Made by a program: the position numbers and the translations under genes
From: Candidatus Nomurabacteria bacterium
GTDB taxonomy: Bacteria; Patescibacteriota; Saccharimonadia; Saccharimonadales; VXPC01
Direction of reading: 5' to 3'
NCBI GenBank assembly: GCA_020631905.1
Contig: JACKGQ010000001.1
Location: 229,854 to 293,853 of the forward strand
DNA length: 64,000 nucleotides
In this document: piece by piece, positions 1-49,110 of the stretch
How the letters are laid out: every line of letters begins with the position of its first letter
Numbering within the stretch: the stretch's first letter is position 1
Notes under the pieces: generated by a model
Database searches by the model: none
Told to the model about the DNA's origin: nothing
The model's input: the letters and a program-made list of their open reading frames with translations, nothing else

Positions 1-6
1 TTAGGT

Positions 7-1359
7 ATGAAGAAGGCGGTCAAACAACTAGCCGAGAAGGCGCTACGTGGTGGGCTTTATAACAAAGTGGTTTTGCCGAAACACTATGCGAACGCCGTCG
101 CCCAAAACATCAAGCACGGGTTTCCGGCCCGCCGGCTCAAGGTAATTGGTGTAACCGGTACCAATGGTAAAACCAGCACCTGTTATTTAATCCATAGCAT
201 GCTACTGGCAGCGGGCTACAAAGCTGGCCTAATGACCACGGTGGCTTACGGAGTGGGTAAGAATATTCAGCCGCAAATTCACCACATGACTAGCCAGCCG
301 ATTGGTCTGCTGCTGGAGCGGATAGAAAAGATGAAAGCCGAGGGCATGGACATCTTAGTATTAGAAGTCACCAGCCACGCCTTGGCTCAGTTCCGCACCA
401 TGGGTGTGCCGTTCGATATTGCGGTAATGACCAACGTCACCCACGAGCATCTCGATTACCATGGTACTTTTGGCGCCTATCTGGGGGCTAAACTCAAGCT
501 GTTTAAATTGGCCAATCGGAATAAGCACGGGCACCGGATTGGAATAGTTAACGCCGACGACGAAAACGCCGCTGTTTTTGCCGATGCGATTGAAAATGTC
601 CTGGCTTATACGCTAGATCCTAAAGCAACAGGTGCTGTCGCGGCGCCGCGCAAGCTCAAGCTAACCCCGCGCGGTAGTACCTACGAAACCGAGATCAAGG
701 GAGTCAAACTTAAGCTCAAGTGCAATTTACCAGGCAGTTTTAATGTGGCCAACAGTTTGGCCGCGGCGAGTGTGGGCGTGGCCTTGGGCCTCGAGGCCAA
801 GCAGATCGAGGCAGGCATCGCCAATCTCGACAACGTCGAAGGCCGAATGACTAGGGTCGACGAAGGCCAAAGTTTTGACGTAATTGTCGATTTTGCCCAC
901 ACACCAGATAGTTTCGAGAAGTTATTCAAAGATTTGCGACCAGTGGTCAAGGGCAGACTAATTGCTTTGTTTGGTAGCGCTGGCCGGCGCGACGAATCCA
1001 AGCGAGCCATTCAAGGCCGACTAGCCGGCAAATATGCCGATTTGGTCGTGGTGACCGAAGAGGACGACCGCGATATCGACGGTACCGAGATTATGAATCA
1101 GATTGCTCACGGGGCCGAGGAGTCGGGCAAGGTTCGTGATCAAGATCTATTTTTGGTACATAACCGCACCCAGGCGATCGAGCTTGCCCTCATGCAGGCC
1201 AAAAAGGGCGATACAGTCATTTTGCTAGGCAAGGGCCACGAGAAGACCATCGAGCGAGCTGTCGGTAGTGGCGGTACTAAAGACCCCGATAACCCATGGG
1301 AAGAGCACCCATGGGACGAGATCGGCACCACCCGCAAACTTCTTAAGACTATAAAATAG
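7..1359 (+). CDS. murE: Mur ligase family protein, MurE-like (UDP-MurNAc-L-Ala-D-Glu:diamino-acid ligase)
   Basis: 450-aa ORF. ATP-binding GVTGTNGKTST, DFAHTPDSFEKLF and GSAGRRDESKR...VVVTEEDDRD motifs match MurE-type Mur ligases. N-terminal domain is short. Confidence 0.8.
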   Translation: MKKAVKQLAEKALRGGLYNKVVLPKHYANAVAQNIKHGFPARRLKVIGVTGTNGKTSTCYLIHSMLLAAGYKAGLMTTVAYGVGKNIQPQIHHMTSQPIGLLLERIEKMKAEGMDILVLEVTSHALAQFRTMGVPFDIAVMTNVTHEHLDYHGTFGAYLGAKLKLFKLANRNKHGHRIGIVNADDENAAVFADAIENVLAYTLDPKATGAVAAPRKLKLTPRGSTYETEIKGVKLKLKCNLPGSFNVANSLAAASVGVALGLEAKQIEAGIANLDNVEGRMTRVDEGQSFDVIVDFAHTPDSFEKLFKDLRPVVKGRLIALFGSAGRRDESKRAIQGRLAGKYADLVVVTEEDDRDIDGTEIMNQIAHGAEESGKVRDQDLFLVHNRTQAIELALMQAKKGDTVILLGKGHEKTIERAVGSGGTKDPDNPWEEHPWDEIGTTRKLLKTIK

Positions 1360-1361
1360 TA

Positions 1362-1390
1362 TTGTAAAATAAGCATAAGTAGTGTATAAT
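1362..1390 (+). promoter_or_regulatory. sigma70-type promoter TTGTAA-N17-TATAAT upstream of G+C-rich ORF A
   Basis: TTGTAA at 1362-1367, exact 17-nt spacer, TATAAT at 1385-1390, in AT-rich DNA directly after the murE stop. Confidence 0.55.
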
Positions 1391-1473
1391 AGTGTTATTG
1401 ATCATGAGAGTGGTCATGAATTTTTGACAATGTGTGAAAAAAAAGCCGCGGTTTTCCGGAGGTGTGTGTTTAA

Positions 1474-2280
1474 GTGGTTTTAACACAGACCCCCGGAAAG
1501 CCAACAGGCGGCTTACTTCTACCCGGGAAATTGATTGGAACTACTACAGCCATGACCATGACCATGACCGACTCGACCGTCAGCACCGACAACCTGCTCC
1601 AGCAGGTTGGTGCCATCACCAGCCACAAGTTCTACGAAGTGGTGATTGGCGATGCCAGGGTCATCCTGGACATCGCAACCATCCACGGGATCGGCAGCAG
1701 GCAGGACGCCAACAACGCGAATTCCATCTGCTGGGCCATCCGCGTGGCCGAAGGCAAGATCAACGCCCTCGAGGGCTTCTACCGCAAGGTGGAGGCCCAG
1801 CTGGCCGCGGTGCGCGAGCACCCACAGAGCGAGCACCTCTACGGGCGGGTCCGCGCCGACATCGACGCCGGCATGCCGGCGATCGGTCAAGAGCTTCAGC
1901 ACCAGCTGCAGTTCGCGCAGGAGAGGCTCTTGCCGGGCCTCGAGAAGCGCCAGGTCAGCCTGGACAAGGCCCTGCAGATCCTGGCGCGAGTGCGCCAGGA
2001 AGAGGCTTACGCCGACTTCGTGGACCAGCGCGGCCCGGCACCGGCCGAGTGCTTCGAGAACCTCGATGTTCTCTGGGCGCATCTCCACGCCTACAGGGAG
2101 TGGAACAGCGTTCTGCCCGACAACCCCGCCTTGCGGCACATGGGGCTCGACCCCAGTGTGACCCACCAGGGTCACCGGCCGCACAGCTCCGCCAGCCGGC
2201 GGGGTGCCGGTCCGCGTGACGACGTCCGCCCGAAGGCCCGCAACCCCAAGGGGAAGCGGGGCAAGGGGAACAAGCAGTAG
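1474..2280 (+). CDS. hypothetical protein, strongly G+C-rich ORF (island A)
   Basis: GTG start 11 nt after GGAGG (1459-1463); alternative ATGACC x3 start at 1551. This frame gives balanced amino-acid composition and G/C-dominated third codon positions. C-terminal tail is basic (KARNPKGKRGKGNKQ). No family recognised. Confidence 0.6.
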   Translation: MVLTQTPGKPTGGLLLPGKLIGTTTAMTMTMTDSTVSTDNLLQQVGAITSHKFYEVVIGDARVILDIATIHGIGSRQDANNANSICWAIRVAEGKINALEGFYRKVEAQLAAVREHPQSEHLYGRVRADIDAGMPAIGQELQHQLQFAQERLLPGLEKRQVSLDKALQILARVRQEEAYADFVDQRGPAPAECFENLDVLWAHLHAYREWNSVLPDNPALRHMGLDPSVTHQGHRPHSSASRRGAGPRDDVRPKARNPKGKRGKGNKQ

Positions 2281-2309
2281 CCGCCAGGCCAGGGCTTAAG
2301 CCAAGGGTG

Positions 2310-2364
2310 GGAGAGGTGCGACAAGTAGGCATTTGTCTACTTGCTAAGAGCGCAATACCTCTCC
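2310..2364. terminator. nested hairpin between convergent genes
   Basis: Outer stem GGAGAGGT (2310-2317) / ACCTCTCC (2357-2364). Inner stem CAAGTAG (2322-2328) / CTACTTG (2337-2343). Lies between the ORF A stop and the stop of the minus-strand gene at 2436. Confidence 0.4.
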
Positions 2365-2435
2365 TGCCCGGGGCAATCAACACACATTGTCACTTCACCA
2401 AAGGTTTTACTAGAAATTTAAAACTTTTGACGAAG

Positions 2436-3293
2436 TTAAAGAGTCAGACTAACACAGCGGATAAAACCACCGCCCTTAACTAGCTCGGTTACGTTCGGAC
2501 TAAGCACGTTGTAACCTCTATCACGTAACTCACTTGCCAGATTATGAGCGTGATTGCTCATAATTACGGTTTTTCCTGTACTAACTAGGTTGCACGCGAA
2601 ACCAGTTTTAGCTTCGTCGAAGCTAACCTCGATTTTATCAATATCTGTTAGTGCACGGATTTTGGCTTGGCTTTCGGGCAGCAAGGCATCCGGGCAATAC
2701 GCGATGGTGTGGTCGTCGATGACCGCAAGCGCAAGATCGAGATCGTAAAAGAAGCTATCTGGCCAGCCGGTGACCGGATTGATGACCGGTTGGTTGTCGG
2801 CACCTAGCTCTGGAATAGCTTGCACACCGATAACAGTTTTACCAAATTCGCGTCCGAGCATGTCGTGCACCTCGGGGCTGGTGCGGTACTGACTACCAAC
2901 AAAAATGTAGTTACCGCAGGGTAGGGCATCGCCCTGGCCACTAAAGTGGAGATCATCTGGCAATTTAACTGTCTCGAAACCAAGCTTTTGCAGCGTTTCG
3001 AGCGCATAGGGCTCTTCTGAGGCGCGTTGCTCTGGCAAATTACTCATGACTGCCTTATCGCCAATTACCAGCGCCCAGTTGGCCGTATAAACCCCGTCTT
3101 GGCTAGTAGGTGGTGCGGGTACTTGAATAACCTCTATACCAGCTTGCTCGAACAAACTTTTGATTTCGGCATGTTCGGCTTGGGCTCTGGCTAGATCGAC
3201 AGGCTTGGAGGCATCCATATGCGAGTTGATCGCGAATCCGTCGTTAAAGTAGTTGGCATCGGACATCAAGACGCGTTGGTTAATCAGACTCAT
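2436..3293 (-). CDS. guanidino-group-modifying enzyme superfamily protein (amidinotransferase/DDAH-like)
   Basis: 285 aa. C-terminal GGGFIRCVSLTL resembles the catalytic-Cys motif of the amidinotransferase/DDAH/arginine-deiminase fold. The size fits DDAH-like proteins rather than ArcA. Confidence 0.65.
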   Translation of the reverse strand: MSLINQRVLMSDANYFNDGFAINSHMDASKPVDLARAQAEHAEIKSLFEQAGIEVIQVPAPPTSQDGVYTANWALVIGDKAVMSNLPEQRASEEPYALETLQKLGFETVKLPDDLHFSGQGDALPCGNYIFVGSQYRTSPEVHDMLGREFGKTVIGVQAIPELGADNQPVINPVTGWPDSFFYDLDLALAVIDDHTIAYCPDALLPESQAKIRALTDIDKIEVSFDEAKTGFACNLVSTGKTVIMSNHAHNLASELRDRGYNVLSPNVTELVKGGGFIRCVSLTL

Positions 3294-3644
3294 AGAAAAG
3301 TAGTATATAGGCCGAAGGCCTTAGGGGCTAGTTTTAAGGAAAGCAAAGCATTAAATCTTTACTAATATTTTCAAGAAAGCAAAGCTTTCCATCTCACTCT
3401 TCTATTTTTGAAGAGACCAAAAACAGAAGCAAAAAAAGTCTTCCCAGCCACCCAAACATCCAGACTATCAAGCTTACAGCTCTTAAATCTGGTAACTTGC
3501 GGAACTTGCTGGCAAAGCCAGCTGCATACAGTCCTCGTTACCATACTTAAGAACTACAAGCTTGCTAATCTCGAGTTTGGGTGATGCTGGATATACAAGA
3601 CCGACAGACATCTAATATCCGAGTTCTAAGATCTATCTCATATC

Positions 3645-3680
3645 AATAAACGAGAAAACCCCGAGCCCCTGAGAGGGCTC
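3645..3680 (-). terminator. rho-independent terminator of G+C-rich ORF B1
   Basis: On the minus strand, stem GAGCCC-TCTCAG-GGGCTC is followed by GGGGTTTTCTCGTTT, directly after the stop at 3693. Confidence 0.55.
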
Positions 3681-3692
3681 TAGGGCTCTCGA

Positions 3693-4127
3693 TCAGAAGC
3701 TCGGGGTAGTTGCCCCAAGTCGACGTCGCTCGAAGCGTCGCCGTTTTCCATGTTGCGAGCCATGCATTTCGCAGGTGTGCTGCGGGTTGGCTTCTGTCAG
3801 CCAGTAGCAGAGCAGAAGCTGCAGGAACTCGCACGACCGTCGTGTCAGCAACTGCTCGGGGCAGTTACGATCCAGGCTGGTCACGTAGTAACCAAAGGAA
3901 TCTTGGTTAACCAGTAGCGAGTGATGAACTTCACCACTCAGATCGGCCAAAACCCGAAGGTCTGGTAGCTGGCAGTTGGAGTTCAGCCGGATGCGAAGGT
4001 AACCACCTGGCGGTGTATACTTGCCGGCGAGACTCACCGTCCGGTTGTCGAAGTGAATGGTAGGAGGTAGGTCGGTAGCAGACATGTCGAGCATTTGGAG
4101 CGACAGTCTGTTGAGGGTCGGGCTCAC
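3693..4127 (-). CDS. hypothetical protein, G+C-rich ORF (island B1)
   Basis: GTG start preceded by AAAGGA. 144 aa with a Cys-containing, Arg-rich C-terminus. Has its own promoter and terminator. No family recognised. Confidence 0.55.
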   Translation of the reverse strand: MSPTLNRLSLQMLDMSATDLPPTIHFDNRTVSLAGKYTPPGGYLRIRLNSNCQLPDLRVLADLSGEVHHSLLVNQDSFGYYVTSLDRNCPEQLLTRRSCEFLQLLLCYWLTEANPQHTCEMHGSQHGKRRRFERRRLGATTPSF

Positions 4128-4161
4128 TTGAGATCCTTTGTTGGCGTGTGGGACGAACGAC

Positions 4162-4190
4162 TATTATGCCAAATTTATTGATAATGTCAA
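4162..4190 (-). promoter_or_regulatory. sigma70-type promoter for ORF B1 (TTGACA-N16/17-CATAAT/ATAATA)
   Basis: Minus strand reads TTGACATTATCAATAAATTTGGCATAATA, in a short AT-rich gap between two G+C-rich ORFs. Confidence 0.55.
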
Positions 4191-4195
4191 CCCAT

Positions 4196-4227
4196 AAAAG
4201 CGGAAACCCCAGGCTACTTGCCTGGGG
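4196..4227 (-). terminator. rho-independent terminator after ORF B2 and its tRNA-like 3' element
   Basis: Minus strand: CCCCAGG-CAAGTAG-CCTGGGG followed by TTTCCGCTTTT. Confidence 0.6.
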
Positions 4228-4271
4228 CGTTGTAGTGCGGAGCGACGGCTCGACGCACAATTCAAAAGGAG

Positions 4272-4360
4272 AAGGTTCGAAGTGGGCGAACCCGGGTTTG
4301 AACCCGGACCGAGGAAACCTCGGTGTATTGGCGGTTAATCCGCCCACTACTCGAAACCTT
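4272..4360 (-). other. tRNA-like structured element (acceptor-like stem plus T-arm-like hairpin plus extra hairpin); not a canonical tRNA
   Basis: Minus strand starts 3 nt after the ORF B2 stop. Acceptor-like pair GTGGGCG/CGCCCAC is extended to about 17 bp. Hairpins are CCGAGG-TTT-CCTCGG and TCCGGG-TTCAAA-CCCGGG (T-loop-like). No D-arm or 7-nt anticodon loop can be drawn. Confidence 0.4.
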
Positions 4361-4363
4361 GAG

Positions 4364-4807
4364 CTACTCCGACATCGCGGGCGGCAGCCCCGCCTCGTGG
4401 GTGGCGTACCACTCACGGTGGGGATCGATCACCCCAGGCTCTTCAGAGTTGTTGCCATCTTCGATCAGGCCGAGACCCTTCGGCCAAGTCCTGATCAACC
4501 CCACGATGGTTGCGATGACCTCCTGCTCCTTCCGGGTTGAGGCGTCCGTGACGGGCGCATCGTGGGCTCCGAGCAGGATTTTCACCGTTGCGGTGTCCGG
4601 GTAGTAGACCCAGTCGTCAGCGCTGATGCCGGCGACTTGACCCATGTCGGCAATCAGCTGGTCGAGGCCGGCAGATGTCAACGGCTGGAAGAACTCGATC
4701 TCGCCGAAGTGACTGTTGGGATGGACTGCAATTCGCAACCAACCACAGCCGTCACCAAGCGTGGTGAGCTCCCTATCCGAACCCTCAGTGAAGGTTGAAG
4801 GTTTCAA
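4364..4807 (-). CDS. hypothetical protein, G+C-rich ORF (island B2)
   Basis: TTG start 5 nt after AGGAGA. 147 aa with balanced composition. Has its own promoter. No family recognised. Confidence 0.6.
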   Translation of the reverse strand: MKPSTFTEGSDRELTTLGDGCGWLRIAVHPNSHFGEIEFFQPLTSAGLDQLIADMGQVAGISADDWVYYPDTATVKILLGAHDAPVTDASTRKEQEVIATIVGLIRTWPKGLGLIEDGNNSEEPGVIDPHREWYATHEAGLPPAMSE

Positions 4808-4851
4808 GGTGTCTCCTTGTAAAGGGCCCGGACTTGTTTCCGAGCTTGGGC

Positions 4852-4880
4852 ATCTTACACAATCTATATCACATTGTCAA
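4852..4880 (-). promoter_or_regulatory. sigma70-type promoter for ORF B2 (TTGACA-N17-TAAGAT)
   Basis: Minus strand: TTGACA (4875-4880), 17-nt spacer, TAAGAT (4852-4857). Confidence 0.6.
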
Positions 4881-5506: not shown

Positions 5507-5773
5507 TTAAGAGAGCGAGCAGACAGGTCGACCGTCGTTATCTATAGCTGTATCTGCGAAAGAAGCCATGCTTGGCTCAAACTGAAAAGTATAAGACTGG
5601 CCTTCTTCGTCAACACAGGTAACTCTAACTAGACCGTCATTATCGTGGTGGAATGTTGGTTCACCAATCACCCTACCGTTTAAAGAAACTGTACGCTGCA
5701 GAACTAACGCGACCACCGCATCTATACCTGCAACACGTGGGTCGCAAAGTTCATGCATTGACAAACTACTCAT
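5507..5773 (-). CDS. hypothetical protein (88 aa)
   Basis: ATG-initiated ORF filling the gap between flanking genes, with ordinary composition. No family recognised. Confidence 0.45.
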   Translation of the reverse strand: MSSLSMHELCDPRVAGIDAVVALVLQRTVSLNGRVIGEPTFHHDNDGLVRVTCVDEEGQSYTFQFEPSMASFADTAIDNDGRPVCSLS

Positions 5774-9295: not shown

Positions 9296-9793
9296 ATGCC
9301 ATACAAGAAAAAAGATACCAAGATTTCTAATGCGCAAGCATATTTGAAGTCGACCGACACAGTCAGTCGACCGACTGCCATTATTATGAGCTTGTTAACG
9401 TTTTTGGCTGTATTTGCGGTTGTCTTGAGCCTATTCTTGGGTGGAAAGTGGTTGTACGACCGTCAGAACAATAATTCGAGCTCCTCGACCAGTACAACTC
9501 AGAGCACTTCTAGTAACACAGAAACAGACAATTCAAGCAAAGTTACCTCGAACTCAGCTGGCAACGACGGGCTTGGGATTACAGTTATCGACGGCGACGG
9601 CGAAAAGATTGCTAGTCGCGTGGGTGAGCAGTTTAACAAGTCGACCACTACCTCGACCGACAAGCCAGCTTCGACACCAGTCGTTAAAACCGATACTTTG
9701 CCTCGGACTGGTCCAGCCAACAATCTTCTGATTGCAGTCGGAGTTGTCGTAATTGTATCAGCTAGCCACAGCTTGTATGCTCGCCGCAGATAA
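9296..9793 (+). CDS. LPXTG-anchored Ser/Thr-rich surface protein
   Basis: N-terminal TM or signal anchor, S/T-rich spacer, then C-terminal LPRTG plus a hydrophobic stretch plus RRR, which is a sortase sorting signal. Confidence 0.8.
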   Translation: MPYKKKDTKISNAQAYLKSTDTVSRPTAIIMSLLTFLAVFAVVLSLFLGGKWLYDRQNNNSSSSTSTTQSTSSNTETDNSSKVTSNSAGNDGLGITVIDGDGEKIASRVGEQFNKSTTTSTDKPASTPVVKTDTLPRTGPANNLLIAVGVVVIVSASHSLYARRR

Positions 9794-45816: not shown

Positions 45817-45845
45817 TTGCATAATATTTACACATATGTTATAAT
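45817..45845 (+). promoter_or_regulatory. promoter TTGCAT-N17-TATAAT driving the G+C-rich non-coding locus
   Basis: TTGCAT at 45817-45822, exact 17-nt spacer, consensus TATAAT at 45840-45845. Confidence 0.65.
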
Positions 45846-45852
45846 GATGTAA

Positions 45853-46410
45853 TCAACCTGAGGTGAGGTGTTTAACCCCTTGAGTTGAACATTTACAATC
45901 AGGTACTAGAAAAAAAATCGCGGTGGCGAGGCAGACGACGGTGTTGGATTACCGTATGGCGCCTTAGCCCCAGTTGGCATGTTGCAAGCAGCAATTCTGC
46001 AGCGTCATCTGACGTGCACCACATTTGTTGGCCGGCAAAGATTAGCCGGACTTGCCAAACTTCTCCGAGGTGCGCGTCGCGTGCTTTGGGGTGCGTGCGG
46101 GCTCACCCGCAACCGAATGGGCGATGCCGGATCCGCTGGCCGCCGAATAGACCCTAGTGAAAGGGGTAAGCTGTGGTCCCACCGGGCCTCTAGGCCGTAC
46201 CGGTCCAAGATGCTACCACCCGAAAGGGGGAGCTATATCAGACTGGTACGGCTATCTTCAGTCAAAATCTGGTGCTCCGCTACAGGCTTGCGTCCACTAC
46301 GTGGCCACCTGGGGCGGAGCACCGAGACCCAATGAAAACCGCCGCCCCGACCTCGTGCAATCGGCCGCAAGGCAGCATGGGGTCGGGGCACAGGTTATCT
46401 AGTACCTGAA
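45853..46410 (+). ncRNA. candidate large structured ncRNA, class unassigned
   Basis: Consensus promoter upstream. An 11-bp closing inverted repeat (45899-45909 / 46399-46409) encloses a core of about 61% G+C. The core has perfect 9-13 bp helices and GNRA loops on the + strand. Only R/W/C-rich overlapping ORFs are present. Confidence 0.55.
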
Positions 46411-46554: not shown

Positions 46555-46821
46555 ATGATTTCAGCTGATAAGAAAGCTAAAACCATCAAAGCCCACGCCC
46601 GCAAAGATAGCGACGTCGGCTCACCAGAAGTTCAGGCAGCTGTGCTGACAGAACGCATTAAAGAAGTTACTGAACATCTTAAAGTTAATAAAAAAGATAA
46701 TATGGCTCGCCGTGGTCTGCTTCAGATGGTCGGCAAGCGACGTCGATTATTGAGCTACTTGGCCCGCAAAGATGCTGCTGGCTACCAAGCTTTGATTAAA
46801 AAGCTCGGCATTCGCAAGTAG
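46555..46821 (+). CDS. rpsO: 30S ribosomal protein S15
   Basis: 88 aa. [48 protein letters not shown]. Confidence 0.97.
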
Positions 46822-46992: not shown

Positions 46993-49110
46993 ATGGATAT
47001 TATCAATCCTAAAGGCGACAAGACTTTACGTGTAAGTACAGAATTTTGTGGCCGCGAATTAAGCCTAGAAGTTAACCGTTTGGCTTTCCGCTCGGAGGCT
47101 GCCGTCTTGGTAACTTACGGCGACACTGTTGTGCTTGGCAACGTCAATGTTGGCGACCCGATTTCGGGTATGGACTATTTTCCGCTTACAATCGACTACG
47201 AAGAGCGCTTTTATGCAGCCGGCAAGATAAGTGGCTCGCGCTACATTAAACGCGAAGGTAAGCCAAGCGACGACGCTGTGCTTATCGGGCGACTTATCGA
47301 TCGGCCAATTCGACCACTGTTTCCGAAAGGTTATCGTAACCAAGTGCAGGCAGTAGCGACTGTCTTGAGCCTCGATCCAGAGGTTCGACCAGACGCTGTA
47401 GCCATGATTGCCATCAGTACCGCCATGACACTAACCGGAGTGCCGTTTGACGGCCCTGTAGCTGGAGTGCGTGTTGGTTTGGTTGATGGCAAGCTAGTAG
47501 CTTATCCAAATACCAGCGACATCAAGACAAGCGATCTAGATATTATGGTTGCTTGTGTCAAAGACGGTGTAATGATGGTCGAGGCCGGGGCAAACGAAGT
47601 TAGTGAGGCGACAATCGTCGAAGCTATGGAGGTTGCGCTAAAGGCCGTACAACCAGTCCTCGAGCTGCAAACCAAACTAGCCAAAGATCTAAAAGTTCAG
47701 GCTCAAGAATACGAGCTGTTGCTGCCAGATGCCGATATCGACGAAGCTGTAACCGACTTTTTGAAGGGTAAACTAGGCGATAAGGTCCAAGGTGGTTACT
47801 TTGAGCGCAAAGCTAGCTTAGACGAATTACGTCAGCAGATGGTCGACAAATTTAGTGCCGATTTAGGTGAAGATGCATGGGGGGCTGTAAAAGGTCAGTA
47901 TCTCGATGCTTTCGAACTAATCGTTAATAAAGATGTTCGAGAACAAATTATTACCAAAGGCGTGCGCCCCGATGGCCGCGAACTTACCCAGGTTCGACCA
48001 TTAAGCAGCCAGGTAGGTGTATTGCCGCGAACTCACGGCAGCGCCATTTTTACTCGTGGTGTAACCCAGGCGTTAAACATTACAACCTTGGCGCCCCTAT
48101 CTTACACACAAGCGGTTGATACAATGGAAAAAGACGAAGAGCGACGCTACTTCCATCACTACAATGCCCCTGCCTATACTTTAGGCGAGACTGGCCGTAT
48201 GGGTAGCCCAGGCAGGCGCGAGATTGGCCACGGTTATTTGGCCGAGCGAGCGGTTAGCCCGATGCTTCCTAGTGAAGAAGATTTCCCATATGCAATCAGA
48301 ACAGTTACCGAGATTATGAGCCAGCATGGTAGCACCAGCATGGCCGCTACTTGTAGTAGTGTACTTAGCCTGATGGATGCCGGCGTGCCTCTAAAGCGGC
48401 CAGTCAGTGGTGTGGCTATGGGTCTGATTATGGATGGCAAGAAGCCGGTTGTGCTAACCGATATTCAAGATGCCGAAGACTTTGCTGGTGATATGGACTT
48501 TAAAGTCACTGGCACCACCGAAGGCGTAACCGCCCTACAGATGGACATGAAAGTTCATGGCCTGCCAGTCGATGTATTAGCTAAAGCCATTGAACAGGCT
48601 AAGCAAGGCCGCGCCGATATCTTGGCTCACATGCTCAGCGTGATCAAGGCGCCACGAGCCGAACTCAGCCAATATGCACCACGTGTCGAAACCATCAAGA
48701 TTAATCCAGACAAGATCCGCGATGTGATTGGCAAGGGTGGCGAAACCATCCAGAGGATTATTGCCGAAACAGGTGCCGATATCGACATCAAAGACGACGG
48801 CACAGTCTTCTTAGCCAGCAACGACGGCGAGATGATGGCCAAAGTTAAGCAGATGATTGCCGACCTAACCGAGGAGCCAGAAGTTGGCAAAATCTACCGC
48901 CAGCGTCCGGTTGTTAAGGTGATGGATTTCGGGGCATTCGTAAATCTCTTCCCAGGTACCGACGGCATGGTTCACGTGAGTGAAATGGCCGAAGAGAGGG
49001 TTGAGAGCCCAAGCGATGTAGTTAAAGAAGGTGATCTTGTCGACGTTAAACTGATGGCGATTGACGACCGAGGACGACTTAACCTAAGCATGAAGAAGGC
49101 CAAAGGCTAG
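46993..49110 (+). CDS. pnp: polyribonucleotide nucleotidyltransferase (PNPase)
   Basis: 705 aa. Two RNase PH domains, KH (IGKGGETIQRI) and an S1 domain. Confidence 0.98.
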   Translation: MDIINPKGDKTLRVSTEFCGRELSLEVNRLAFRSEAAVLVTYGDTVVLGNVNVGDPISGMDYFPLTIDYEERFYAAGKISGSRYIKREGKPSDDAVLIGRLIDRPIRPLFPKGYRNQVQAVATVLSLDPEVRPDAVAMIAISTAMTLTGVPFDGPVAGVRVGLVDGKLVAYPNTSDIKTSDLDIMVACVKDGVMMVEAGANEVSEATIVEAMEVALKAVQPVLELQTKLAKDLKVQAQEYELLLPDADIDEAVTDFLKGKLGDKVQGGYFERKASLDELRQQMVDKFSADLGEDAWGAVKGQYLDAFELIVNKDVREQIITKGVRPDGRELTQVRPLSSQVGVLPRTHGSAIFTRGVTQALNITTLAPLSYTQAVDTMEKDEERRYFHHYNAPAYTLGETGRMGSPGRREIGHGYLAERAVSPMLPSEEDFPYAIRTVTEIMSQHGSTSMAATCSSVLSLMDAGVPLKRPVSGVAMGLIMDGKKPVVLTDIQDAEDFAGDMDFKVTGTTEGVTALQMDMKVHGLPVDVLAKAIEQAKQGRADILAHMLSVIKAPRAELSQYAPRVETIKINPDKIRDVIGKGGETIQRIIAETGADIDIKDDGTVFLASNDGEMMAKVKQMIADLTEEPEVGKIYRQRPVVKVMDFGAFVNLFPGTDGMVHVSEMAEERVESPSDVVKEGDLVDVKLMAIDDRGRLNLSMKKAKG

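Follow-up and report, generated by a model that had tools for sequence, protein, structure and literature searches.

The type I toxin mRNAs of hok/sok and aapA1/IsoA1 are characterized by a long-distance interaction between their 5' and 3' ends ('fbi/tac'); RNase III processing stems flank rRNA and other stable RNAs; and the Obelisk and viroid-like RNA elements, about 1 kb in length, are highly structured and carry one open reading frame (ORF). Here we analyse a locus that shares traits with each of them: a G+C-rich single-gene cassette after murE in a member of the Saccharibacteria. These obligate epibionts have very small genomes with a strongly conserved gene order, whose few variable junctions hold lineage-specific biology, probably including host interaction. 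The cassette occupies positions 1425-2392 of a 64,000-nucleotide (nt) stretch (the window; NCBI assembly GCA_020631905.1, contig JACKGQ010000001.1, positions 229,854 to 293,853, forward strand), and it fits no protein, RNA or mobile-element family described so far. We propose, with a probability of about 0.4, that it is a self-contained unit of ~0.97 kb from an orphan family of the Saccharibacteria, with paired ends and a highly folded sequence, which relocates and acts at the level of its mRNA. A preliminary description, made from the letters of the window, had read the gene as an import from a high-GC donor.

The accessory gene after murE and its family

The GC-rich gene that follows murE is indeed an accessory insertion, placed at a variable junction. 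The extra segment that holds it lies between the stop codon of murE and that of the convergent DDAH-like gene (Table 1). In the closest relative found (L251, MurE 83% identical) these two genes overlap by 8 nt and the segment is absent; in two others (L253 and L254, MurE 74%) they are 199 nt apart, with an ORF of 62 amino acids (aa) on the opposite strand; and in a further one (L252, MurE 79%) the same junction holds a different, normal-GC ORF of 469 aa with its own promoter. Because the junction is empty or otherwise filled in the relatives, all of 1360-2435 is lineage-specific. The abrupt GC steps at both ends might in themselves point to an assembly chimera or contamination, in which a high-GC fragment had been mis-joined, and the preliminary description had raised this concern. 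However, window 1-3382, with both junctions and both GC steps, recurs at 100% identity in a Logan contig (L250, 2 samples), 1558-2434, with the right junction, does so in an ENA contig (L271), and two other loci likewise carry a GC-rich ORF in AT-rich flanks. Three independent assemblies, the window included, thus agree, which excludes a chimera as far as assemblies show, and we regard such an artefact as barely credible. The orientation of the segment is identical in all three. No strain variant lacking the island or carrying it inverted was found; other same-strain assemblies break before the island or agree with the window.

The compositional contrast is extreme. The window has a GC content of 46.8%, and the 800-nt peak of the entire 64 kb is at 1501-2300, with 65.6% (mean 46.8%, standard deviation 3.3). 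The ORF at 1552-2280 reaches 66.5%, and its G+C fractions at the first, second and third codon positions (GC1/2/3) are about 0.67/0.42/0.90. Its GC3 of 0.90 compares with 0.46±0.046 in 45 long core ORFs of the same window, which served as the core reference (core maximum 0.60; z=9.6). These runs of windowed GC and GC3 bear out the strongly G+C-rich ORF that the preliminary description had pointed to. Its G+C counts are exact (46/60 at 1801-1860 and 39/60 at 1861-1920), and the four overlapping by-product ORFs are present (1434-2219 and 1646-2161 on the plus strand, 1519-2184 and 1955-2383 on the minus strand); the long antisense ORF lies in the codon-aligned frame, which is expected with GC3 near 0.9.

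The proposed start at GTG 1474 with GGAGG as its ribosome-binding site proved wrong, as both lie within the conserved leader hairpin at 1450-1502. Read from 1474, the ORF has GC1/2/3 of 0.66/0.44/0.85, and its first part, 1474-1563, has 0.47/0.57/0.50: codon periodicity is absent there and begins only after ~1560. Since 1474-1551 shows no periodicity and holds the conserved hairpin, and since the homologues begin at MT..., the true start is ATG 1552 or 1558. The NCBI annotation uses the latter (240 aa, H6798_01245, hypothetical protein of a candidate phyla radiation (CPR) bacterium), and gives the organism as 'Candidatus Nomurabacteria' in this entry and as 'Candidatus Saccharibacteria' in those of the neighbouring proteins. 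GGAGG and the threefold ATGACC do exist as described, each one position away from where they had been placed (1458-1462 for the former; Table 1 for the latter). The first letters of the ENA contig are exactly those of the second ATGACC unit, which could mean population heterogeneity in the number of units, which is in-frame and would alter the N-terminal Met-Thr count, or a simple assembly break.

Relatives of the protein are very few. Searches that together covered ~15 billion proteins matched only two other lineages. A word-indexed search of 5.8 billion clusters returned the H6798_01245 protein itself only, and two more proteins, P0002 (E 5e-9, query residues 3-188) and P0004 (E 9e-5), came from exhaustive phmmer against 1.84 billion representatives; a 2306-aa repeat protein from the phmmer search was read as spurious. 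P0125, from the locus L255, falls in the same 90% cluster as P0002. A three-sequence profile against the 5.8-billion-cluster set gave nothing further, neither the 50,697 phage nor the 72,556 plasmid records held a significant tblastn match (best E about 0.4), and a protein-profile scan of IMG/VR found no relative. At the nucleotide level, a scan of IMG/VR with two leader patterns gave chance matches only, with the hairpin partner absent, and a two-arm leader pattern run against public genome and metagenome contigs likewise gave chance matches, with no true relative among the matches listed (local BLAST). So far, the family has been seen only in Saccharibacteria, where it is very rare.

The three proteins are about 30% identical (28-35%) and share the motifs HPQ..LYG.vR..iDaGMP and A[YF]..W and a basic tail. 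As these shared motifs run along the whole length, the gene is real. The KGKRGKGNK tail noted in the preliminary description is there, and the family is recognised by no library: Pfam, PHROGs, NCBIfam, PADLOC and PDB sequences gave no significant match. AlphaFold, run with one or three sequences, returns all helices (predicted local distance difference test score 52-53), and Foldseek with this model finds nothing in PDB at E<=0.001. The predicted layout is an all-helical core of ~190 aa followed by a disordered basic tail, and there is no obvious hydrophobic segment in the 240-242 aa. A structured non-coding RNA gene, with the ORF as a by-product of high GC, would share with this element a GC-rich sequence in an AT-richer genome, a terminal stem and extreme folding z, and a clearly non-coding island in the same window (Island C, below) looks alike; but the strong codon periodicity, the three homologous proteins with motifs along their whole length and the want of any Rfam match make it very improbable.

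The three copies sit at three different gene-end junctions of one ~9-kb murE...groEL neighbourhood in three related genomes. The copy at locus L001 follows directly on the 3' end of groEL, and that GroEL tail is 77% identical to the window GroEL; the L255 copy adjoins a homologue (46%, E 3e-8) of the 88-aa gene at window 5507-5773, and the window junction corresponding to the L255 site is empty. Comparison of the three sequences thus shows the cassette to have relocated among gene-end junctions, and shows that it came with, or landed beside, a promoter on the left and an AT-rich hairpin on the right. In the window, an ORF right after groEL (9296-9793) has an LPXTG motif for cell-wall anchoring (Pfam E=2e-4); it is this position that the L001 cassette occupies.

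Complementary ends, leader and predicted fold

From 5' to 3', the cassette consists of a 5' arm, a leader hairpin, a single-stranded block, a poorly exposed ribosome-binding site, the ORF of ~240 aa, a GC-rich hairpin and a 3' arm. The arms form a perfect 12-nt inverted repeat bracketing the island, which had escaped the preliminary description; 32 of 2000 shuffles yield one. The 5' arm can be described as TGACAA plus 6 variable nt. In L255 the arms (GACAAAGCATG/CATGCTTTGTC) are again perfect, over 11 bp, and between the window and L255 8 arm pairs stay the same, whereas 3 have changed on both sides with pairing kept. The energy of the arm duplex is reached by 10/500 shuffles in the window and by 2/500 in L255.

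The same leader hairpin is found in all three copies. Registered on their A•C mismatch, the hairpins have a basal stem of 9-10 bp and an upper stem of 9-12 pairs, whose sequence differs in every copy yet stays paired. Within the basal stem 3 pairs are invariant, 4 are doubly compensated and 2 changed one-sidedly via G·U, and 0/28 cells are broken. A covariance model of the leader matches only the three copies, namely this window and the relatives' loci. The most conserved block (consensus GGRAAGCCAAYNGGCGGCU) is near-invariant in L001 and L255 despite ~30% protein identity, and it is unique in the window even at 3 mismatches. The length over which a block is conserved among the copies is 17 nt. 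The CCCGGG element downstream could offer an alternative pairing with the 3' arm of the leader hairpin. Rfam 15 gave only chance-level matches, far under the gathering scores, for the leader, the 3' hairpin and the cassette.

Nucleotide homology between the window and L001 begins abruptly at TTGACA (1424), with z=18 for the leader and an insignificant z of about 2 for the promoter region upstream. As the -35 of an internal promoter this TTGACA was rejected, since no copy has a -10 at suitable spacing. The TTGTAA-N17-TATAAT promoter is the best of 4 promoter-like sites against 0.6 expected, and it stands just outside the conserved cassette; the promoter that had been proposed beside the gene is in place and is of the sigma-70 type. 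Promoter-like sites on the minus strand at 1430-1401 and 1388-1361 are weak (9/12 matches). L255 has TTGACA-N17-TAATAT (10/12) 41 nt upstream of its left arm, and L001 has only a weaker promoter candidate, plus the groEL terminator. The TCATGA...TCATGA hairpin is also present as had been described (1402-1419), and is either the 5'-terminal stem-loop of the transcript or a weak murE terminator; its L001 counterpart, a hairpin with a T run at 193-220, was scanned as terminator-like. On the other side, the nested 3' hairpin exists, but we do not call it a terminator, for it has no T run; the preliminary description had found it terminator-like. L255 has an analogous GC-rich hairpin without a U tract at 943-978, so that the feature is complete in two copies, and in both the 3' arm starts 11-12 nt after it. 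The AT-rich hairpin beyond the 3' arm is likely a shared bidirectional transcript end; in L255 an AT-rich hairpin likewise follows the right arm.

The predicted fold is very stable. The whole cassette reaches -481 kcal/mol against -390±8 kcal/mol in dinucleotide shuffles (z=-11.5), and the L255 cassette has z=-6.7 on the same basis; in both, the arms close the molecule in the minimum-energy and the centroid fold. Since mixed composition can inflate the z of a whole cassette, the ORFs were set against synonymous-codon shuffles, which retain protein and codon usage. The window ORF then has z of -6.3 (24 shuffles) and -4.7 (40 shuffles), the L001 ORF -4.6 and -4.3, and the L255 ORF -1.9 and -2.2; the null sets are -0.77±1.24 (minimum -2.9) for 27 core genes of the window and -0.51±1.13 (minimum -2.9) for 21 actinobacterial high-GC ORFs. 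Two of the three family ORFs are well outside both null sets. High GC alone as the cause of the stable fold is ruled out by the synonymous shuffles together with the 21 actinobacterial ORFs.

We propose that the cassette probably yields a closed mRNA under post-transcriptional control, as the folding models suggest. Transcription would start at the external promoter and run through both arms, and the cis elements would act within the transcript. The mRNA may then fold very stably with its ends pairing, and this fold would govern stability, processing or translation, so that, until processing or binding takes place, the message may be kept stable or held back from translation. The protein could be part of this control: considering its helical core, its basic disordered tail and a leader with a conserved mismatch and a single-stranded block, we may guess that it binds nucleic acid, possibly its own leader, and regulates itself.

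Origin of the G+C excess and competing readings

Most of the GC excess is at synonymous sites, and it ends abruptly at either border of the cassette. Among 246 ORFs from high-GC loci, GC1 is 0.69±0.06, GC2 0.50±0.06 and GC3 0.86±0.04, and the core ORFs of the window have 0.57, 0.38 and about 0.47. The cassette ORFs have about 0.68, about 0.43 and 0.90 in the window, 0.61, 0.40 and 0.83 in L255, and 0.60, 0.37 and 0.62 in L001. In the latter two, the amino-acid classes GARP and FYMINK are core-like and GC2 (0.37-0.40) lies under that of 97-99% of the 246 high-GC ORFs. Mid-GC proteins of this kind, with third positions up to saturation, are not what long residence in high-GC genomes would lead one to expect. 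A local GC-biased conversion process radiating from the hot spot was rejected, as GC3 shows no gradient and is lowest (0.39-0.42) at the island-side end of the DDAH gene. As an observation in its own right, no other core ORF among the 45 reaches the GC3 of murE (0.60), and that of tsaD, which lies upstream (L250 2-1087), is raised too (0.48-0.62), while the orthologues of both in the relatives have 0.36-0.45; the rise is uniform along each gene, without a gradient toward the island.

A recent import from a high-GC donor, be it an actinobacterial host or its phage or plasmid, would have kept the codon usage of the donor and taken up a promoter of the recipient type. The GC3 of 0.90, the GC1 and FYMINK of the window copy, the sharp composition borders with no GC3 gradient into the flanking genes, the empty site in relatives and the 3' hairpin without a U tract all fit this, as does the fact that another hot-spot family (B1, below) is GC3-rich in two genomes. 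The ecology fits as well: cultured Saccharibacteria have Actinobacteria as hosts, and Patescibacteria that parasitize Gordonia occur in wastewater (PMC11659515, PMC11880426). However, exhaustive search found no homologue among actinobacterial genomes, phages, plasmids or IMG/VR contigs. The sole relatives are in Saccharibacteria contexts, with a leader that is mid-GC in all three copies and travels with the ORF; the core-like amino acids and the GC3 of the L255 and L001 copies would be unexpected for a family long native to high GC; and ~30% identity would require three separate recent imports into the same 9-kb neighbourhood. The high-GC donor of the preliminary description thus finds no backing in these data beyond composition and ecology, and we consider such an import possible but rather unlikely. 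That description had also held that homologues confined to Patescibacteria with the same high local GC would speak for vertical inheritance. This distribution is nearly what we find, except that each of the three copies has a site of its own, so that inheritance is not simply vertical. We take the GC excess to belong to the cassette family and do not read it as proving a recent import from a high-GC host: in such genomes, a gene that stands out strikingly in GC3 need not derive from the host. Were the import true after all, the cassette would be a marker with which to identify the uncultured host.

Several points weigh against the mRNA-level role that we prefer. Three concern composition. The window copy, with GC1 0.68, FYMINK 0.19 and GC2 0.43, resembles high-GC proteins, its GC1 and FYMINK being in the range of the 246 ORFs, and the shift in GC1 may reflect a past period under GC pressure. 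A 3' hairpin without a U tract, as seen in the window, is a style common in Actinomycetota. Moreover, structure as the cause of GC-richness in all hot-spot genes had to be rejected, as the B1 and B2 families show no excess RNA structure. Others concern the fold and its basis. The structure evidence is computational throughout; the L255 ORF, at -1.9 to -2.2, is not clearly beyond the null; with only three lineages and two complete cassettes, the covariation rests on very few sequences; and the AlphaFold confidence is low, which makes fold matches meaningless. If the transcript ended at 2369, the 3' arm would be outside the RNA.

The remaining points bear on whether the repeats act as DNA. The terminal arms are perfect Watson-Crick pairings, as DNA inverted repeats would be; the reverse complement folds equally well (-482 vs -481 kcal/mol, z=-8.2); and only 22/331 pairs are G·U. 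The equal strand energies and the few G·U pairs leave room for a DNA-level role, in which the cassette would be a non-autonomous element moved in trans, or an ORF flipped on and off by a recombinase against a fixed outer promoter. Perfect repeats stand exactly at the borders in two copies, their inner halves differing between copies and matching within each; the promoter lies just outside the left repeat in the same number of copies, and the three junctions differ. Yet no target-site duplication abuts the ends in the window or L255, motif and covariance model find one copy in the 64-kb window with one protein copy on record for the genome, neither the cassette nor the ten neighbouring ORFs scanned (out to ~18 kb) holds a transposase or recombinase, and the orientation is single in all three assemblies. 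Such a role would also leave the leader hairpin, the G·U intermediates and the excess ORF structure unexplained, and the plus-strand ensemble is far better defined (centroid -434 vs -322 kcal/mol for the minus strand). We judge it unlikely.

A further reading goes beyond the mRNA-level role: an undescribed, possibly mobile small CPR element, of which the RNA or a single-stranded intermediate would be the functional form, with synonymous G and C building the structure and the protein binding the leader. It would account at once for the GC3 excess, for the conservation of the cis elements and for a relocation in which no transposase takes part; we nevertheless hold it to be a long shot. The puzzle it addresses is how accessory genes keep a GC3 of 0.8-0.9 while the genome around them has 47% GC, and the syntenic B1 homologues pose the same question.

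Those homologues belong to Island B of the window, whose two small ORFs, B1 and B2, have no match in Pfam, PHROGs or PADLOC. Syntenic homologues of both (30% and 38% identity) stand next to the DDAH gene in L252, where the B1 homologue has a GC3 of 0.87 in a 48%-GC genome. As B1 is GC3-rich in two genomes, GC3-rich accessory genes recur at these junctions in different Saccharibacteria. The 469-aa protein at the murE junction of L252 (4224-5633, GC 46.6%, with its promoter directly after the murE stop) is an orphan with an HEMNH (HExxH-type) motif and no Pfam or PADLOC match. The 3' untranslated region of B1 contains a tRNA-like element (4288-4352, minus strand; T-arm-like GGTCCGGGTTCAAACCCGGG) whose Rfam match, of mascRNA/tRNA-like type, is weak and does not reach the gathering score (25 bits, E=0.019), and in which ARAGORN detects no tRNA. 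An 11-mer, TTGACAATGTG, that precedes both the murE island and Island B was discarded as a -35 hexamer plus chance, as there is no further similarity nearby, and 15/100 shuffles give at least 3 matches at one mismatch. Several independent same-strain assemblies (NCBI GCA_020428525.1, Logan, ENA) end within or close beside the AT-rich spacer that separates the DDAH-like gene from Island B (3353-3670), which suggests low coverage, a repeat or strain heterogeneity. Island C, preceded by a TTGCAT-N17-TATAAT promoter at 45818-45846, folds with z=-8.2 and a ~12-bp terminal stem (CAGGUACUAGA/UCUAGUACCUG) and has no Rfam match even at E<=1; on this predicted fold it is a candidate for an undescribed large structured RNA.

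Table 1. Coordinates of the cassette, its flanks and the other GC-rich islands of the window
Feature	Position	Strand	Remarks
murE	7-1359	+	Pfam-assigned
Lineage-specific extra segment	1360-2435	+	between stop codons of convergent murE and DDAH-like gene
Sigma-70-type promoter TTGTAA-N17-TATAAT	1362-1390	+	10/12; outside conserved cassette, 34 nt upstream of 5' arm
AT-rich hairpin TCATGA-GAGTGG-TCATGA, then AATTTTT	1402-1424	+	
5' arm TGACAATGTGTG	1425-1436	+	TTGACAA conserved in all three copies
Leader hairpin, 53 nt	1450-1502	+	10-bp basal stem, A•C mismatch, variable paired upper stem; z=-4.6
Most conserved block GGAAAGCCAACAGGCGGCTT	1495-1514	+	hairpin 3' arm and single-stranded tail
CCCGGG	1522-1527	+	includes CCGGG common to all three leaders
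ATGACC x3 microrepeat	1552-1569	+	overlaps start codon
ORF, 242 aa from ATG 1552 (240 aa from 1558)	1552-2280	+	stop TAG 2278-2280
Nested GC-rich 3' hairpin, no U tract	2305-2369	+	z=-3.5
3' arm CACACATTGTCA	2381-2392	+	pairs with 1425-1436
AT-rich hairpin, 18-bp arms	2392-2436	.	between cassette and DDAH-like stop
DDAH-like amidinotransferase gene	2436-3293	-	Pfam-assigned
Island B, two small GC-rich ORFs	3640-4880	-	TTGACA-type promoter and canonical terminator each
B1	4807-4364	-	GC3 0.76
B2	4127-3693	-	GC3 0.64
Island C, ~560 nt, GC up to 62%	45850-46410	+	no credible ORF; upstream of rpsO (46555-46821) and pnp (46993-49110)

Comparison with known systems

Hot-spot cargo genes or islets gained by horizontal transfer resemble the cassette in their deviant composition, their place between core genes, different cargo in relatives, patchy distribution and orphan protein. 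Ordinary islets, however, are without elaborate conserved cis elements; the cassette has them, together with relatives in the same phylum only and no donor that could be named. An integron cassette likewise has a single ORF followed by an imperfect hairpin, an external promoter upstream and different sites of residence. Neither the attC R'' (RYYYAAC) nor the R' (GTTRRRY) motif is present in the flanks of the window or L255 cassette, and the ten neighbouring ORFs, which are core genes or unknowns, have no integrase domain; in contrast to integron cassettes, no attI or cassette array is seen, and there is a long conserved 5' leader with terminal inverted repeats. Miniature inverted-repeat transposable elements and invertible segments share the short perfect border repeats and the promoter outside, and differ in the points already given, namely target-site duplication, copy number, a nearby transposase or invertase, and orientation.

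Obelisks come close in size (~0.9-1.0 kb), in their extreme predicted structure and in a single ORF of ~200-240 aa of unknown fold. Unlike them, the cassette sits in chromosomal DNA beside core genes, as three DNA assemblies agree; its fold is branched, not rod-like, and it has no ribozyme and no sequence relative. RNase III stems offer the parallel of a long-range stem that brackets a GC-rich structured transcript in a lower-GC genome, and Island C is similar in this respect. They flank stable RNAs, whereas the predicted stem of the cassette encloses a protein-coding gene.

The hok and aapA1 mRNAs have in common with the cassette a short end-to-end stem around the coding region that is backed by compensatory changes (here arms of 12 and 11 bp with 3 double changes), a compact folded mRNA with an occluded translation start (as predicted for the cassette), and a single small gene with its own promoter. 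Their peptide is hydrophobic and shorter than 60 aa, while the cassette product is a soluble helical protein of ~240 aa, and they have an antisense RNA, whereas no antisense RNA gene is evident at the cassette. As it encodes no small toxic peptide and no antisense RNA is evident, the cassette is not a member of the hok/aapA1 or RNase III-stem family. If the closed mRNA exists as proposed, a control principle of tiny toxin mRNAs would be extended to a protein gene of normal size. What is familiar at this locus is an orphan cargo gene at a hot spot; what is unfamiliar is the pairing of the ends, the architecture of the leader, the hyper-structured coding region and a GC excess that is synonymous only.

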